NCBI GenBank assembly: GCA_000004695.1
Contig: CM000153.2
Location: 1,984,001-2,048,000, forward strand
Reading direction: 5' to 3'
Length of the DNA stretch: 64,000 bases
Origin: Dictyostelium discoideum
Taxonomy: Eukaryota
Below, in pieces: positions 34,714 to 46,822 of this stretch. The notes beneath the pieces are model-generated. The model worked only from the letters and a program-made list of their open reading frames with translations, was not told where the DNA came from and did no database searches. Within the stretch, counting starts at the first letter, position 1, and each line of letters opens with the position of its first letter. A program made the position numbers and the translations under genes.

Positions 34714-36655
34714 ATGACAAATAATAAAAACGAAAATGAAAGTAATAATCAATTGGAATCAAGACATACAAAAAAAAAACAAAAAACTAATCACAATGAA
34801 ACAAAAGAAACAATTGATGTTATAATTGAAAAAACAACAACAACAATTCACAACTTAGAAAACCTCAATATAGAAGAATTGAATAAATTTAAACAAATTG
34901 AATTATTAGAAATTGTAAAATCATTTTCAAAGAAAACTAATAATAGAAAAAAGAAATCAGAATTAATTGAAATTTTAAAAGAAGAGATTGAGAATCGTAA
35001 ACTATTAATACAAGAAAATGAAAATAAAATTAAAAATAATAACCCATTTAATAAAAACTTTAAAGAATTATTAATAAAAGATGTTGATAATAATGAATTA
35101 TTATTTTGGAAAATTTTTAGAAATAAAGTTTTATTTAAAAATATAATATCAAAATTTGAATTTAAACATTTTTCACAAAATTATGATTCAATGATATCAA
35201 TTCATAATTTACTAGCAAATGATAAAATTTCAATTGTAAAAGATAAAGTAAACAATAATAGTAAATACCTTGTATTTACTCCATCATCATATGGTACAAA
35301 TGGTACATCAACTACAATAACAACAACAAATCTTTATCAAACTTTTAGTATTATATTTTCAAAATTTCAAACTGATGATCTTGATACTTATAATTTCTTT
35401 AAAAATTTATTTAAAAATTATGGTAATAAATTCATTGAAGAATTAAAATATATTAAATTTATAAATGGTGATGGTGATGGTAATGGTAATGATGATAGTG
35501 ATGATGATAGTGATGATGATAGTGATGATGATAGTGATGGTAATGGTAATGATGATAGTAATGATGATAGTGATGATGATAGTGATGATGATAGTGATGG
35601 TAATGGTAATGGTGATGGTAATGGTAATGATGATAGTGATGATGATAGTGATGATGATGGTGATGGTAATGGTAATGGTGATGGTAATGGTAATGATGAT
35701 AGTGATGATGATAGTGATGACGATGATAGATATTTTTGTTCAACTGATTTTATTAGGACTATGATAATTTATAATTGTGTGCCAGCAGTGAAGGTATTAA
35801 TGAATGAATTTAATTTTATTCCAACTGTTGATAATTTCTTTAAAAAAGTTGTTGGATATGGTTCATTAGAAATTTTAAAATTTTTATTAATTAATGATGA
35901 AAATCAAGAAAGAAGAAATAAATTAATTTCTCAATTGAAATCAAAAAAAAGTCATTTACAAATTTGGAGAGAAATTTCATCATCAACTTTATTTCAAGGT
36001 TTTTATGGTCCATTGAATATGAATTATAAAATAGAGAAATTTAAAACAATTTTATTTTTACTTGAAAATAATTATTTAAAAATTCCTCAAAAAAATGAAG
36101 ATTTAAATGATATTAAAGTATCATTATATTCAACTTCACCAATTACAAATTATTTATTATTAAAAGATTTAATATTAAGTTGTAAATTATTAAATCAATT
36201 ATTAAATAATAATACAAATAATAATAGTTATTATGATGAAATTATTAAAAAATTTACAAATAAACAATTAGAATCAATGTTAAAAGATTTAATTAATTGG
36301 GAACTAAATGAAAATGAAAATAAACAGATTATAAAAGATTTATTAAATTATTGGTATAGGGAAAGTGGTACTTCAAAAATTGATTATGAATTTTATTTAT
36401 GTTTTGATAAACTAGAGAATGATAAAGAAATAAGGTCAGTTCATAAAACAAACTTTATATTAGCATTACAATATGGAAATTTTGAAATTCTAATGAAATC
36501 AGTCCCAAATCAATTTGGTTTAAAGGAATTTGAAAGAACTGTAATAACATATGATATCGATATTCAACATAAACCAAATTATCTATTTACTCATTGTCAT
36601 AATAAAGAGAAACAAAAGGAGTTTATTTCATCTTGGATTCAATATATTAGTATTG

Positions 36656-36704
<49 letters not shown>

Positions 36705-37851
36705 TAGTAGTGGTGGTGGTTTTTGTTTAAATTATTATTATTATTATATTTTACTTATTTTAATTCAAAATGACGATATTGAATTATTAAAATTTTCAAT
36801 TAATAAGTTACCACTTGATAAATTAATTATAAATTTTGAAAAACATAATAATATTATAATTTCAGATTATATAAAATCAGTTGAAATGTTAGAATTCCTT
36901 TATAAAGAATATGGTTCAAATAATATTTTAAAACCTTGTTTACAAATATTTCTTTTACATCTTTCAAATTTAGAATTATTAAAATGTTTTGAAAAATTGG
37001 AAAATTTATCATCAAAAAGGAGAATTGTTTTATTAGAAGATAATGTTAAAAAATGTGTTTTCAATTTACCAATGGTTTCTCATATTATTAAAAATGTTGA
37101 AAATATTTATGAAATTAAAGAATTTGCATTTAAAGGAATATTTAATGATATTGATAATAATCATGAAAATCAAATAGATGAATTAATTAATTTATTACAA
37201 TATATAGTTAAATTTACAGATATTAAAATTAATACATTTTTAAATTATTACTATACAAACTTTATATTATTCACTAAAATACCAAATTTTAAAATTTTAA
37301 AATTTATTGATTGGTTAATTTCAATTAACTATTCAATTATTAATGATGGGTTTTTTTGTGAAAATAAATTAAAAATATTAAAATATTTAGTTGGTAGAAT
37401 TCAAGAAATTGATGAATTCTTTCCAGACAAGTGGATAAATTCAGGTGGTGGTAATATTTACCCTTTAGCTAAATTTATAGTTTTAAAATGTGATTTAGAT
37501 GCATTGGATTTAATAATGAAAGAAATTAATAATTCAAATAAAGCTATCAAAAATGATGATATATCAAATTTCATTTTCATTCTGTTAGGATTTGCATGTG
37601 AAATTGGTCAATTAAAAATTTTAGAACATATTAAATTACACCATTGTCAACTATTTAATAAGAAATCAAAAAGTGGTGGTTGGTTCTCTCAAATTCAATT
37701 AAACTCTTTAATAAATAAATCAATTATTTCAAATCATATCAATTGCACTGAATTTCTATTACAATATTCAACTATATCTCAATCACAATTTAAAAAAATT
37801 ACTGCTAAATCTGGTATTTCTTATACTTATTTTAAAAATAAAATAAAATAA
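34714..37851 (+). CDS. Uncharacterised 1045-aa protein with an acidic (GDGNGN/DDSDDDSDDDSD)n tandem repeat (nt 35459..35745) and poly-N; single exon
   Basis: Uninterrupted ORF 34714..37851 with no recognisable catalytic motif. The repeat unit, ggtaatggtaatgatgatagtgatgatgatagtgat, recurs about 8 times. Confidence 0.7.
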
Positions 37852-38055: not shown

Positions 38056-38093
<38 letters not shown>

Positions 38094-38586
38094 AAAAATT
38101 ATGGACAAAAATAAAAAAAAAAAAAAAAATAATTATAATAAATAAATAAAAAAAAAAAAAAATAAATGATGAATAGTTCAAAAGTACTGAAGTATGTGAT
38201 TGTGATTAAATAATTATTTAAACACCACCACAAAATTGTGAGTTGATAAAAAAAATATTTTTACTTTTTTTTTTTTTTTTTATGTAAAAATGATAATGTA
38301 TTATTATAATAGAGTTTTGAATAATTTTTATTATTTTGTAATTTTATTCAGAGAATTTCAAAAAAAAAAAAATAATAATCTGAATGTAAAAAGAAACTTT
38401 CTTTAAATAACAAGAAATAAGTTATTATCATTTTTTTAATTTTGTTTTTTTTAATAAAAAATGATAAATACACATACAAAAATTAAAGTATAAATAAGAA
38501 TGAAAATTATAATTTTTAATCATTAAATATTCAAACAAAAAAATAATAAACAAGCAAATAATTATATTTTTAAAAAAAAAAAAAAA

Positions 38587-39366
38587 ATGAAATCAATTAG
38601 TATAGTATCTTTATTAATTTTATATTGTATAATAAGTTGTGGTAATGTTGTTGTAAATGCAATAAATGGTCAAGTAACATATTATAATGATCAGGGCTAT
38701 GGCTCCTGTGGTACTTTGATTGATGCAAATACCCAATTTTTAGCAGCAGTTCCACCAGGATTTTGGACAACAACAAATCCAAATTTAGATCCAGTTTGTG
38801 GTAAACAAGTAAAATTAACATATAATGGTAATTCAATTACACTTCCAGTACGTGATAAATGCCCAGGTTGTCCAAATAATAATATTGATATTAGTGCTCC
38901 TGCATTTATTCAATTAATTGGTAGTCTTGGACCTGGTAGAGTTAGTGTAACTTGGGAATTTGTAGGTAGTAGTTCAAGTGGTGGTAGCACAACCGGAACA
39001 GTTTCAACAACAAATGGTAATAGTGGTACTTGTCCAAGAAAAGCATCAGTTAGTGTAGGTCAAGGCTGTTATGATGTATGGGTATCAAAATGTAACAATG
39101 CTTGGGATGAGAACCAATTATACGCTGCTAATCCAGGTGTATCATGTACTTCTCTTCAAGTTGGTCAACAATTATGTTGTGGTGGTAGTACAACTGGTGG
39201 TAGTGTTACTTGTTCAAGAAAAGCATCAGTTAGTGCAGGTCAAGGTTGTTATGATGTATGGGTATCAAAATGTAATAATGCTTGGAATGAGAACCAATTC
39301 TTTGCTGCAAATCCAGGTGTTTTTTGTACTGATCTTCAAGTTGGTCAACAATTATGTTGTAATTAA
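38587..39366 (+). CDS. Secreted RlpA/barwin-like double-psi beta-barrel (DPBB) protein with a Ser/Thr linker and two C-terminal ~50-aa six-Cys modules (259 aa); paralog A
   Basis: Signal peptide MKSISIVSLLILYCIISCGNVVVNA. DPBB motifs GQVTYYNDQGYGSCG...DPVCGKQVKLTYNGNSITLPVRDKCPGCPNNNIDISAPAF. Then SSSGGSTTGT, then two copies of TCPRKASVS(V/A)GQGCYDVWVSKCNNAW(D/N)ENQ(L/F)(Y/F)AANPGV(S/F)CT(S/D)LQVGQQLCC. Confidence 0.8.
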   Translation: MKSISIVSLLILYCIISCGNVVVNAINGQVTYYNDQGYGSCGTLIDANTQFLAAVPPGFWTTTNPNLDPVCGKQVKLTYNGNSITLPVRDKCPGCPNNNIDISAPAFIQLIGSLGPGRVSVTWEFVGSSSSGGSTTGTVSTTNGNSGTCPRKASVSVGQGCYDVWVSKCNNAWDENQLYAANPGVSCTSLQVGQQLCCGGSTTGGSVTCSRKASVSAGQGCYDVWVSKCNNAWNENQFFAANPGVFCTDLQVGQQLCCN

Positions 39367-40270
39367 TCAATCATTAATCATTTTCAATAATATTCTAAAA
39401 CTATAATTATTTATTTATTTAAAACTTTTATTTATTAATAAATGTAAATTTATTTTTTATTTCAAATTTTTAAAAAAACTGTTAATTTCTTTTTAATGGT
39501 TGAAAAGTTGTTATTTTTTTTTTTTTAATTAAAATTATTTGAACATTAAAAAAGAAATTCAAATTTCTTCGATTTTTTTATTTAGATTTAAATTATTTTT
39601 TTTTTAATTTTTTTTTTTTTAAAAAATCGAAATGTCAAAACCAAAAAAGAATGCGTGCGACGTGGCTTTTTTTTTTAATTATTATAATAATGAATCATTT
39701 TTAAGATTCACCCGAATGGTGAGAATAGTGAATTTAAATTTCGTACACAGTTATATAAGGTTGGATATTTTAAAGTCTTTTTTGTTTGTCTATGGACTAG
39801 ATATTTTTTTTTTTTTTAATAAAATAATGTCTTTTTATTAAATAAAAAAAAAAAAAATTTCCTTAATTCGTGATTGGTTAAAATAATTTATGATTAGATC
39901 TTATTGGGGGGTTCGGATAATTATTATTTTTGAATTCAAAAATAAAAAAATTAAAAAAAATTAATAAATTCAACGGTTTATAATAATAATAATGATGTTG
40001 ATGACTTCTGGTCTTGTTCTTTTTTTTTTTTTGAAAAAATCTTATTTTTCTAATAATGTAATTTTTGCTACCTCTTAAAAAAACTATAGATCTAATTCTT
40101 TATGGTATTAGGATCTATGCCTGATATTTAATTTTTTTATAATAATAATAGTTTATTGTTAAATTTTTGTTTAAATAGCAATTTAATTTTTTTTTTTATA
40201 AATCATTAAAATCATAAATTAAAAAACAAATAAAAAAAAAATAAATAAATATATATATAAAAAAAATAAA

Positions 40271-41047
40271 ATGAAATTAATTTTAAGTTTATTAACTTTA
40301 TCAATTTTATATTGTGCTAATACTGTAAATGCAATTAGTGGTCAAGTAACATATTATAATGATGTAGGTTATGGCGCCTGTGGTACTGCTATTGATGCAA
40401 ATACACAATTTTTAGCAGCAGTTCCACCAGCTTATTGGACTACAGCAAATCCAAATTTAGATCCAGTTTGTGGTAAACAAGTAAAATTAACATATAATGG
40501 TAATTCAATTACACTTCCAGTACGTGATAAATGCCCAGGTTGTCCAACTAATAATATTGATATTAGTGCTCCTGCATTTACTCAATTAGTAGGTAGTCTT
40601 GGACCTGGTAGAGTTAGTGTAACTTGGGAATTCCTTGGTGGTAGTTCAAGTGGTGGTACAACAGGTACAGTTTCAACAACAACTGGTGGTAGTGGTACTT
40701 GTCCAAGAACTGCAACAGTTAGTGCAGGTCAAGGCTGTTATGACGTATGGGTATCAAATTGTAATAATGCTTGGGATGAGAACCAATTCTACGCTGCTAA
40801 TCCAGGTGTATCATGTACTGCTCTTCAAGTTGGTCAAAAATTATGTTGTGGTGGTACATCATCATCATCTTCAACAACTGGTAGTGCTTCTTGTTCAAGA
40901 AAAGGTACTGTTGATGCAGGTCAAGGTTGTTATGATGTATGGGTATCAAAATGTAATAATGCATGGAATGAGAATCAATTCTATGCTGCAAATCCAGGTG
41001 TTGTTTGTACTGATCTTCAAGTTGGCCAACAATTATGTTGTAATTAA
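40271..41047 (+). CDS. Secreted RlpA/barwin-like DPBB protein, paralog B (258 aa); tandem duplicate of 38587..39366
   Basis: The architecture is the same and the DNA is near-identical across the DPBB domain (ggtcaagtaacatattataatgat... in both). It has the same two C-terminal Cys modules. The flanking intergenic DNA is unrelated. Confidence 0.8.
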   Translation: MKLILSLLTLSILYCANTVNAISGQVTYYNDVGYGACGTAIDANTQFLAAVPPAYWTTANPNLDPVCGKQVKLTYNGNSITLPVRDKCPGCPTNNIDISAPAFTQLVGSLGPGRVSVTWEFLGGSSSGGTTGTVSTTTGGSGTCPRTATVSAGQGCYDVWVSNCNNAWDENQFYAANPGVSCTALQVGQKLCCGGTSSSSSTTGSASCSRKGTVDAGQGCYDVWVSKCNNAWNENQFYAANPGVVCTDLQVGQQLCCN

Positions 41048-41135: not shown

Positions 41136-41173
<38 letters not shown>

Positions 41174-41453
41174 CAAAAATATTAAGAGAGAGTGGTTGAT
41201 ATAGTACTATATCATAAATTAATTTCAATGGTAATCATACCCCAAACATTATTATTAATGTTAATGGGGTGTTTAAATTATTGATTTAAAATTGATATTA
41301 TATCTGTTATTCATTTAAAATTAATTTTTTAAAACTAGAGAATTAATTTATTTAGTTTTTAAAATAAGTATAAAAAATACCAGATTTAGCAGTAATTTTT
41401 TTTTCTGCAACAAAACCCATTTTAATTATTTTTTTATTTTATGTGTTTCTGAA

Positions 41454-43461: not shown

Positions 43462-45157
43462 ATGACACTAATTCAAAATGAACATCCAGAAATTAGTAAT
43501 ATAATAAATAATATTCAACAAAATCAAAAGAATAATAAAATCAATGATTTGAAAAATTTTTTAGAGAATTCAAAACATTTTGGTGATTTTAGAAAATACT
43601 TAATTGAAAAGAATAAGTATTCATTGGCATCAATGTTACAATGTTATGAATCGATTCAATCATTTAAACAATCATTTTTAGTAGATAATCCACCATTTAA
43701 TTTAAAATTAGCAAATGATATCATATCAACCTTTTTAATTAAACCAACAAATTCAAACGTTTCACCAAACTCGAGTAATTCAAATTTATTTTCAAATAAT
43801 AATAATAATAATAATAATAATGGAACAGGATCATCATCATCATCATCATCACCACCACAATCACAACAACCATCATCATCTTCATTTTATATTGGTTTCA
43901 TTGATGCAAGTGTTTATAATAGTTTAAAAGCTTTATTAGATCCATTGTGGCAAAAACCAACTTCTTCAATTTCTTTAAATAGTTCTGTTAATACAACAAC
44001 AACAACAGCAGCAACAACAACATCTAATAACCCATTATCAACATCATCATCAAGTATTGGTGCTGGTGGTTCATTATTTGATTCATCACCATTAGATTCT
44101 GATTCTGATTTATTTGGTACCCCAACAACACCAGTACCAATACCAACACCAACAAAAACAACAACAACATCAACAGTTGAGGATCCAGAAGAACCAACTA
44201 AAGAACAAATAAATAAACAAAAAGAGATTAAAGATGATTTATCAACACATGTCACCCATAATTTATTCGATATATTAATTGAATTCTTAATATTCAAATT
44301 AGAGCCTGAATTTAGAAAATATATGGCCATAATTACTCCAAATGTATGTTTTTAATTTATCCTTATTATTATTATTATTCTTTGTTTTAAATTTATATAT
44401 ATTTTTTTTTCATTTTTTTTATTTGAAAGTTTTAAAAAGTTGGATCCTTTTTGGAAGATCCTGGGAAAGGCCAAAAAAAAAAATAAAAATAAAAAAAAAA
44501 ATAAAAAAAAAAGAAAAGAAAAAAAAAAAAATAAAAAAAAAAGAAAAAAAAAATTTTATAATTTGACCTAAATTTGCTGATTTTCATATACTGACCTTTT
44601 TTTTTTATTACTTTTAGAACGAACAAAGTTTTAACCCATTAAATAGTAATAATAATAATAACAATAATAATAATAATACAAATACAAATTCAAATATGGT
44701 ATTTGAATCACCATTAACACCAAAGAAAGAGGAAGTTGCAGCCAATTTTTATATAAATAATTTAAATAACAGTAGTAATAGTATAAACTATAATAGATTA
44801 GAAGGAGAGAATAGAATAGTATGGTTTGGAGATCAAGATCATATTCCAGTTTACTATGTGGATCATTTAGGTGGTGCAATAATTCAAGCATTACTATATA
44901 TAACCGAATTTAGATTCCTATTCATTAGTAAACTAACTATGACCGAATTAACATGGATACCATTAGCAACAGTTTATCGTATTGAAAGAGTAACAAGTTT
45001 TAGGTTTGACAGTGCAATTTCAATATGGGGTAAAAATTTTAGGAGGATTGAATTTCATATTGATCCAAAAGAGTTTAAACAACAATCATTTAATACATTA
45101 GGTGGTATTTCTGTAAATAATAATAATAATAATAACAATAGCAATAATAATAATAAC

Positions 45158-45188
<31 letters not shown>

Positions 45189-46822
45189 TGAATAATGGTA
45201 TGAATAATGGTTCACCTTATATTAATGGTGGTAATAATGGTGAATATATTGGTGATATCACTCAACCAATTATATTTAGAATGAGAATATTTGCTTTTCA
45301 AGATGTATCAAATTTATTTGCATTCAAATATTCACCAAATAAATCACAATTACAAGATGGTTGGAGAATATTAAATGATTTTGGTGAATGGTTACGTCAA
45401 GGAATTCTATCAGAGACAGCAGGTTACAATATGAAATGGCGTTACTCTGAAAAGAATATTGAATATATTAATCCAACCTATCCAAAATGGTTGGTTGTAC
45501 CACATAATATTTCCGATGAAGAAGTTGGTATTTGTATGAATTTCCGTTCAAAAGGTCGTATTCCAGCATTATCTTGGATAAGTAGAGATGGTGTACCTTT
45601 GGCACGTTCATCACAACCAATGGTTGGTATCACTAGACAAAAGAGTGTTGTTGATGAAAAGTTGGTGGATTCAATTCGTATGGCTTGTCCAAGTGGTAAA
45701 TCATTATTCCTATTGGATGCTCGTCCAAAAGCAAATGCAATTGCAAACGTTGCAAAAGGTATGGGCTATGAATTGAATTACAATTGTGATATTGAATTCC
45801 TTGGTATTGCAAATATTCATTCAATGCGTGACTCTATCAATAAATTGGAACAATTTTGTCAATCAAATAACGATGAAAATTGGTTAAGTGGTCTTAATGA
45901 AACTCGTTGGTTAGATCATATTCGTACACTTTTATTAGGTGTAGCCAGAGCAGTCAGTCTCATCAATAAAGGTCATCCAGTTTTATTGCATTGTAGTGAT
46001 GGTTGGGATAGAACTTCTCAACTCTCCTCTCTAACTATGATCATTCAAGATCCATACTTTCGTACTATTGAAGGTTTCCAAGTTTTAATCGAAAAGGAAT
46101 GGTTAAGCTTTGGTCATTGCTTTATGAATCGTGTAAGACATGGTGATCGTAATTGGTACTCTGATAGTCAACGTTCACCAGTATTCCTTCAATTTATCGA
46201 TTGTGTTTATCAATTAATGAATCAATATCATGACTACTTCCAATTCAATGAAAACTATTTAATTACAATCTTGGATGCCCTTTACTCTTGTCAATTTGGT
46301 ACATTCCTTTGTAATAGTGAAAAGGAAAGACAAACTATTAAAAAGGATACAGTATCACTTTGGAGTTATATAAATTCAAATCCATTGACTCCCTATCTAA
46401 ATCCATTCTATATTTCCTATGAACATGAAACATCAAGAGCTTTCCATTTACCAGAATGGAGAAGTGAACATATTACCCTATGGAAAGGTTATTACCTTCG
46501 TTATTGGAGAAATCCATTAAAGGAACCAATGGATTGGCAAAAGGTCTCCATTGGTTTAAAACTTAAAAACAATCATCTCTTACGTCAAATCCAAGATTTA
46601 ATACTTCAAAATCAACAATTAACATTGGATAATTTATCATTACAAGAAGAAAAGTACAAACAAACTCAAGAAGTTGAAAATGAGAAATTAGAAAATCAAG
46701 AAAAAGAAAAAAGTGATCATAGTAAAAAATTAAATCAAGAAAATGATATCACCATACCACTCAATAATGAAACTATATTAAACGAAAGTGAACCTGTTGT
46801 AGAAAATGAAATAAATCAATAA
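43462..46822 (+). CDS. Myotubularin-related phosphoinositide 3-phosphatase (GRAM/PH + PTP domain, CSDGWDRT active site, C-terminal coiled coil); 2 exons 43462..44343, 44618..46822 (~1028 aa)
   Basis: LLHCSDGWDRTSQLSSLTMIIQDPYFRTIEGFQVLIEKEWLSFGH is the myotubularin CX5R catalytic loop. A GRAM-like RIVWFGDQDHIPVYYVD...TWIPLATVYRIERV lies upstream. Exon 1 (ORF 43462..44355) ends at a GTATGT donor at 44344 (phase 0). The acceptor TTTTAG|AAC at 44616-44617 is in frame with ORF 44696..46822 and no stop intervenes. Confidence 0.8.

Follow-up and report, generated by a model that had tools for sequence, protein, structure and literature searches.

The gene pair

A 64,000-nucleotide stretch of Dictyostelium discoideum DNA (GenBank assembly GCA_000004695.1, contig CM000153.2, positions 1,984,001 to 2,048,000 of the forward strand; G+C content ~22%), referred to here as the window, contains a tandem pair of paralogous genes. 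Each encodes a small, predicted secreted protein with an N-terminal double-psi beta-barrel (DPBB) domain of the type found in the Streptomyces mobaraensis papain inhibitor SPI, and two C-terminal LysM domains. All positions given below are those of the window, and all features of the pair lie on the + strand. Gene A (DDB_G0284479; UniProt Q54PL6) occupies 38587..39366 as a single-exon coding sequence of 259 amino acids plus stop, and its open reading frame (ORF) is identical to AX4 XP_638516.1. Gene B (Q54PL5), at 40271..41047, is likewise a single-exon coding sequence, of 258 amino acids plus stop, and its ORF is identical to AX4 XP_638517.2. The two genes are 1,684 bp apart from start to start, in agreement with a preliminary description of this DNA, which had placed two tandem paralogs 1.7 kb apart, and are separated by an intergenic gap of 904 bp. 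The encoded proteins are 82% identical, and no third copy was found within the window. An older model of gene B (P0013; UPI00004E37E5, 274 amino acids) ends in LCYKIKTIFFDSKGLMIESG instead of LCCN, apparently because of a spurious intron that is gone from the current record.

The gene A protein starts with a predicted signal peptide (residues 1-25, MKSISIVSLLILYCIISCGNVVVNA; 38587..38661), read by eye as a hydrophobic core followed by V-N-A. It is followed by the DPBB domain (residues 26-127; 38662..38967), matched by PDB entry 5NTB, Foldseek, NF041659 and DPBB_1, and by a first linker rich in Ser, Thr and Gly (residues 128-148; 38968..39030), recognized from its composition. LysM module 1 (residues 149-198; 39031..39180) and LysM module 2 (residues 209-258; 39211..39360) were each delimited by Pfam, an AlphaFold2 model and a module profile. 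Gene B has the same arrangement: a predicted signal peptide read from the sequence (residues 1-21, MKLILSLLTLSILYCANTVNA; 40271..40333), the DPBB domain (residues 22-123; 40334..40639), which was assigned by its NF041659 and DPBB_1 scores and by its DNA identity with gene A, LysM module 1 (residues 144-193; 40700..40849), with the best Pfam LysM stretch at 149-192, and LysM module 2 (residues 208-257; 40892..41041), identified by Pfam LysM and by the six-cysteine module. The leaders suggest that the products of both genes are secreted. In the AlphaFold2 model the mean predicted local distance difference test (pLDDT) value was 68, with values of 70-87 for the DPBB domain and 61-84 for the LysM modules, and values below 50 for the signal peptide and linker 1 of gene A. 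The hydrophobic leaders, the Ser/Thr-rich linkers and the two repeated six-cysteine modules of ~50 residues in each protein had all been recognized in the preliminary description.

The N-terminal barrel is an SPI-type DPBB

The N-terminal domain belongs to the SPI subfamily of DPBB proteins and is not expansin- or barwin-like. In a phmmer search, the gene A DPBB domain matched SPI (PDB 5NTB) with an E-value of 3.5e-31, and in a Foldseek comparison the modeled domain was superimposed on the same structure with a template modeling score (TM) of 0.90, a root-mean-square deviation (rmsd) of 1.3 A and 50% identity. The top Foldseek matches of the barrel were all DPBB proteins; after SPI, the next best were loosenin PcaLOOL12, bacterial and fungal expansins, kiwellin and cerato-platanin. 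The NCBIfam equivalog model NF041659, named "cysteine/serine endopeptidase inhibitor", gave 136.8 bits for gene A and 142 bits for gene B (E 4e-40 and 1e-41), whereas the NCBIfam model expansin_EXLX1 gave 38.9 and 40 bits against a cut-off of 100. The barwin- or expansin-like character proposed earlier for the domain is thus not borne out: its scores are 137-142 bits with the inhibitor family and 39-40 bits with expansins, and neither Barwin nor Expansin_C/CBM63 was hit.

Four cysteines and an insertion of the form WTTxNPNxDPxC are invariant or nearly invariant columns of the alignment and are common to the SPI relatives, whereas both the insertion and the four-cysteine signature are absent from the aligned fungal loosenin-like DPBB domains. 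The amoeba barrel is ~50% identical to SPI over its whole length and shares these four cysteines and the insertion with it; SPI, however, is a stand-alone bacterial protein of ~12 kDa, whereas in the amoeba the barrel is one part of a protein that also has two LysM domains. With expansins, loosenins, cerato-platanins and barwin the domain has in common the DPBB fold and conserved aspartate residues in the groove, and unlike expansins the amoeba proteins do not have a CBM63 second domain.

Several other assignments were considered and rejected. Barwin (PF00967) gave no hidden Markov model (HMM) hit at E-values up to 10, and barwin structures were distant Foldseek matches (E 3e-3 to 7e-3). Expansin_C/CBM63 gave no Pfam hit at E-values up to 10, the C-terminal part being LysM, and no Pfam HMM hit to cerato-platanin was obtained at the same limit. 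An RlpA-type architecture was set aside since no SPOR hit was obtained, the leader is of the eukaryotic signal-peptide type and the RlpA-like structure 4avr was a distant match (E 3e-5). In public records the two proteins are called "hypothetical protein" and "SRCR / speract-scavenger receptor domain-containing protein". No Pfam hit to SRCR was obtained at E-values up to 10, and no SRCR structure was found among the sequence or fold matches in the PDB; the public SRCR name therefore looks like a false positive caused by the cysteine pattern. Both names should be replaced by SPI-type DPBB plus two LysM domains.

The six-cysteine module is LysM

The repeated module was at first described as not assignable to any known fold and as possibly a lineage-specific carbohydrate-binding domain. 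It is a lineage-flavored LysM domain and not a new domain, so it matches a well-known domain after all; its carbohydrate-binding type stands, and its restriction to the lineage does not. With the Pfam LysM model (PF01476/CBM50) the two proteins scored 31.6 and 37.7 bits, above the cut-off of 20.9, and each was matched in two stretches. In the AlphaFold2 model both modules were found to have the beta-alpha-alpha-beta order of elements, with strands at residues 151-154 and 195-197 and helices at 161-168 and 175-181 in module 1, and strands at 212-214 and 255-257 and helices at 221-228 and 235-241 in module 2. In Foldseek the module was superimposed on the LysM domain of Pteris chitinase-A (PDB 4pxv) with a TM of 0.80 and an rmsd of 1.8 A. 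A profile built from 23 dictyostelid and related modules matched, over the full length, the LysM domains of Equisetum chitinase-A (5bum, E 1.9e-13) and Pteris chitinase-A (4pxv, E 3.7e-12) in the PDB, and LysM of the Volvox chitinase/lysozyme was also matched (5k2l, E 4.5e-4).

Four of the six cysteines of the module (C1, C13, C39 and C49) are the usual cysteines of eukaryotic LysM domains, and they are shared, together with the beta-alpha-alpha-beta fold, with the Equisetum and Pteris chitinase-A domains. The dictyostelid modules differ from these in the remaining two: Cys21, located in a three-residue insertion K-C-(G/N) after helix 1, and Cys50, the additional last cysteine. Cys21 and Cys50 were observed to be present or absent together across the module alignment, and Cys1 and Cys49 are lost jointly in a Heterostelium protein. 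This co-occurrence and co-loss points to the pairings C1-C49, C13-C39 and C21-C50; taken from covariation alone, the last pairing suggests a third, dictyostelid-specific disulfide. LysM domains bind glycans containing N-acetylglucosamine (GlcNAc), such as chitin and peptidoglycan. The apparently orphan cysteine-rich module thus becomes a testable chitin- or peptidoglycan-binding domain.

Duplication and probable gene conversion

The coding sequences of the two genes are closely similar, with 92.7% of the nucleotides shared in a 330-nt stretch of the DPBB region and ~93% in each LysM module, confirming the near-identity that had been noted over the DPBB domain. The similarity ends at the start and stop codons. 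The 300-bp flanks, 61% identical upstream and 56% downstream against a shuffled AT-rich baseline of 57%, are unrelated, as the preliminary description had it for the intergenic DNA. A run of 102 nt at 38774..38875 in gene A is identical to 40446-40547 in gene B and is a likely gene-conversion tract.

The adjacent pair was also found, under consecutive locus tags, in other sequenced strains of D. discoideum and D. cf. discoideum. Residues at positions 36, 111, 152, 168 and 216 distinguish the paralogs steadily across strains, whereas those at positions 58, 59 and 97 (GF/N versus AY/T) track the strain rather than the paralog: one strain has GF/N in both paralogs, another has AY/T in both, and AX4 has one state in each gene. 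This strain mosaic and the long identical tract argue against a duplication of very recent date and for tandem copies that are old and have undergone gene conversion. Of the two explanations offered earlier, recent duplication or gene conversion, the second is therefore retained and the first, in the sense of a very recent event, is not; the pattern is the signature of old tandem copies that were recently homogenized. D. firmibasis and D. purpureum were each found to have one copy per locus in unrelated neighborhoods, and synteny with either species was accordingly rejected. In D. firmibasis (CM069765.1; L081:5929-6738) the annotated protein RB653_003425 begins with MVGQASYY and does not have a leader; the 5' part of the gene is missing from this model, as the open frame extends upstream to MKIIFILLILSFLFCLFSNVIVNA.

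Taxonomic distribution and proposed origin of the barrel

When 1.84 billion representative proteins were searched exhaustively, 2,522 hits were obtained, among which the combination of DPBB and LysM was found in dictyostelids (with two to five LysM domains), in two basidiomycetes and in one protein from a nematode assembly. The basidiomycete proteins (P0087, P0110) are small secreted proteins with the same two Pfam families, but their barrels are ~35% identical to those of the amoebae and do not have the SPI-type insertion. The nematode protein, from Acrobeloides nanus (P0078), is also a small secreted protein with these two families, but in reversed domain order and with one LysM domain. An SPI-type barrel was also found in the plant-parasitic nematode Ditylenchus destructor (P0091). 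The presence of SPI-type DPBB domains in the A. nanus and D. destructor assemblies may reflect independent horizontal acquisition or contamination. One dictyostelid protein (P0014; EukProt gene1338-1689_t, 1010 amino acids) has a cytochrome-P450-like N-terminal half followed by a DPBB domain and five LysM domains, and probably represents two neighboring genes fused by the gene caller.

A single DPBB sequence searched against bacterial genomes gave no match, but an alignment-based scan of bacterial and archaeal genomes for the SPI-type signature WTTxNPNxD recovered 242 relatives. Among the 80 of these that were listed, nearly all are from Actinomycetota, including the genera Amycolatopsis, Kitasatospora, Streptomyces, Catenulispora and Actinoplanes, with 50-60% identity to the amoeba domain. 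Each named match in a profile search for the barrel was also actinobacterial. The dictyostelid barrels have a mean identity of 53% to actinobacterial and 35% to fungal barrels, and they adjoin the actinobacterial clade in a neighbor-joining (NJ) tree, with only 52% bootstrap support. The near-exclusive actinobacterial distribution of the SPI-type barrel makes an ancient transfer into amoebae plausible, and such a transfer, in the presumed direction from a bacterium to an amoeba, is judged to be somewhat more probable than not. The genes of the pair are intronless, yet their G+C content at third codon positions (8-9%) is fully Dictyostelium-like. The transfer, if it took place, would have carried a protease-inhibitor domain of Actinomycetota across kingdoms into a soil-dwelling organism that preys on bacteria.

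Possible function

What might a barrel of this type do when it is joined to LysM domains? Its close relatives give some indication. In most of the 80 listed bacterial loci the barrel is encoded in stand-alone ORFs of ~137 amino acids. Among 67 multi-domain nearest relatives, the most frequent partners were found to be CBM_5_12 (10), fn3 (5), ricin-B (3) and GH18 (2). The amoeba proteins resemble these actinobacterial fusions (fn3 plus CBM5/12, ricin-B lectin, GH18) in having the same tethered barrel with a mostly chitin-binding partner; they differ from them in that the bacterial proteins use other binding modules, LysM occurring in none of them. The tethering of this barrel to modules with affinity for GlcNAc polymers is a recurrent design, in which LysM fills the binding part in amoebae. 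In one protein of 684 amino acids from Streptomyces sp. NPDC090106 (P0029), an SPI-type DPBB domain bearing the name "cysteine/serine endopeptidase inhibitor" precedes a region that resembles GH18 (27.4 bits, the cut-off being 29.6), which hints that the subfamily works with chitinases. Expression of a "LysM domain protein" with an unmapped identifier, DDB0218607, was reported to be 32-fold higher in the wild strain V12M2 on bacteria (PMC2443395).

Judged from their domains, the LysM-anchored SPI-type DPBB proteins most likely act on or at microbial walls that contain GlcNAc. As to the ligand, the activity and the biological role, we infer from sequence and from analogy with SPI a tentative reading, which we favor with somewhat less than even confidence: SPI-like protease inhibition at the microbial surface. 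SPI is described as a nanomolar inhibitor of papain, gingipains and trypsin that also antagonizes bacterial growth (PMC4757070, citing Sarafeddinov 2011 and Zindel 2013), and papain is also inhibited by RsRlpA, a more distant fungal DPBB effector (PMC7662947). The pair of LysM domains would dock the protein on GlcNAc polymers, either the peptidoglycan of prey or competitor bacteria or fungal chitin, and docking would concentrate the barrel at the microbial surface. There the barrel would act like SPI, binding tightly to papain-like cysteine proteases and to some serine proteases and inhibiting them, and might slow microbial growth. Soil Actinomycetota would have been the ancient source of the barrel, and its fusion to a LysM repeat of eukaryotic type would have come later.

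Several observations count against this reading. The Pfam DPBB_1 (PF03330) scores, 26.8 bits for gene A and 25.6 bits for gene B (E 6e-6 and 1.5e-5), lie slightly below the cut-off of 28.8, although the fold match agrees with the DPBB assignment made earlier; orthologs and bacterial relatives pass the same cut-off, for example P0015 with 32.8 and P0019 with 55.6 bits. The NF041659 scores are 8-13 bits below the curated equivalog cut-off of 150 bits. This shortfall is attributed to the bacterial leader part of the model being unmatched: the match spans model positions 32-122 of 130, the last residues also being unmatched. The NJ bootstrap for the grouping of dictyostelid and actinobacterial barrels is only 52%. 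The fusions of the barrel to CBM5/12 and GH18 in bacteria suggest polysaccharide work rather than protease inhibition, and a role in glycan binding would suit the conserved Asp and Thr in the groove of the barrel just as well. In the group-4 LysM domains of D. discoideum, GQGC is present in place of the canonical GD(T/S)C, a difference that might change ligand binding. The literature, searched with the identifiers of the genes and their proteins, contained a single passing mention, of low expression that was reduced in a dnmA mutant, and DDB_G0284479 is weakly expressed in axenic cells (baseMean ~15; PMC12405889).

Non-hydrolytic wall loosening, of the loosenin or expansin kind, is a possible though less probable alternative. 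LysM would anchor the protein on chitin or peptidoglycan and the DPBB groove would pry the chains apart, aiding lysozymes or chitinases against prey or competitors. The ranking of PcaLOOL12, expansins, kiwellin and cerato-platanin directly after SPI among the structural matches is consistent with such an activity, as are the invariance of the conserved Asp in the VxDxCPxC and IDxS motifs and the frequent occurrence, in the nearest relatives, of a CBM5/12, GH18, ricin-B or polysaccharide lyase domain as fusion partner. Both cellulose and chitin networks are reported to be substrates of loosenins, whose fold is the same (Monschein 2023, cited in PMC11869483). However, the sequence is far nearer to the inhibitor family than to expansins, no SPI-type member is known to loosen walls, and the bacterial members are mostly stand-alone 12-kDa proteins.

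It is improbable that the proteins are true peptidoglycan lytic transglycosylases (of the RlpA/MltA type, or an analog of proteins with LysM and a 3D domain) that digest bacterial prey. Pfam files DPBB_1 under the term "lytic transglycolase", the joining of LysM to a DPBB-like catalytic domain is a recurrent design of bacterial cell-wall hydrolases (YocH-type), and bacteria are the food of Dictyostelium. Nevertheless, no significant match to an RlpA- or MltA-type structure was obtained, 4avr as the best RlpA-like one being far behind SPI; SPI itself is not reported as an enzyme; and neither a SPOR nor a 3D domain was detected with Pfam.

The remaining two alternatives are both very unlikely. 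Remodeling of the cellulose sheath or spore coat by means of a novel, lineage-specific carbohydrate-binding module, the role put forward in the preliminary description, would agree with the DPBB fold being common to expansins, with Dictyostelium being a cellulose maker and with linkers that look O-glycosylated as in matrix proteins. A cellulose role is nonetheless unsupported because LysM binds GlcNAc-containing glycans; the module is not novel, its nearest solved LysM relatives come from chitinases, CBM63/Expansin_C is lacking and the expansin model scores far under its cut-off. A decoy or binder in the manner of kiwellins, in which LysM holds the protein at the microbial surface and the DPBB domain neutralizes a non-protease enzyme or effector secreted by the microbe, could be proposed from the kiwellins among the structural neighbors (Foldseek E ~4e-7), which work by binding fungal chorismate mutase (PDB 6FPG title; PMC11820871), but the identity to kiwellins is ~24% and no candidate target is known.

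If SPI-like protease inhibition at the microbial surface is nevertheless followed further, a broader and rather doubtful scenario can be drawn from the analogy. Dictyostelids, and separately some soil nematodes, would have captured an actinobacterial inhibitor barrel by horizontal transfer, and the fusion with LysM in amoebae would be a wall-homing secreted effector that disarms microbial proteases or growth, an antimicrobial or innate-defense factor of a bacterial predator, the pair being kept homogenized by gene conversion. Should wall binding combined with protease inhibition or loosening prove true, the proteins would constitute a new class of factor in the Dictyostelium toolkit against bacteria and fungi, and the pair would reveal what SPI-type barrels do when tethered to glycan-binding modules. 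The outcome is a sound re-annotation of domains, accompanied by a hypothesis that can be tested and a plausible account of horizontal transfer; it does not amount to a system of a new kind.

Surroundings of the pair

The neighboring genes in the window, which encode a myotubularin, an integrator-like protein and low-complexity ORFs, are unrelated to the pair, and a functional gene cluster was rejected on this ground. Scans of the window for tRNA genes and Rfam families gave no hits. Upstream, an ORF of 1,045 amino acids at 34714-37851 (+) was found to contain a long acidic D/S/G/N repeat (DDSDDDSDGNGN...) and a poly-Asn tract, with no significant Pfam family. In the intergenic spacer between the two genes, which has a G+C content of 16%, a small island of higher G+C content is located at 39632-39841 (AATGCGTGCGACGTGGC); it holds an ORF of 69 amino acids and gave no Rfam hit. 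Homopolymer A and T tracts of ~35-40 nt at 38056-38095 and 41136-41175 flank the gene pair, as is typical of Dictyostelium intergenic DNA. The downstream neighbor at 44696-46822 (+) encodes a myotubularin-like phosphatase (E 6e-128).

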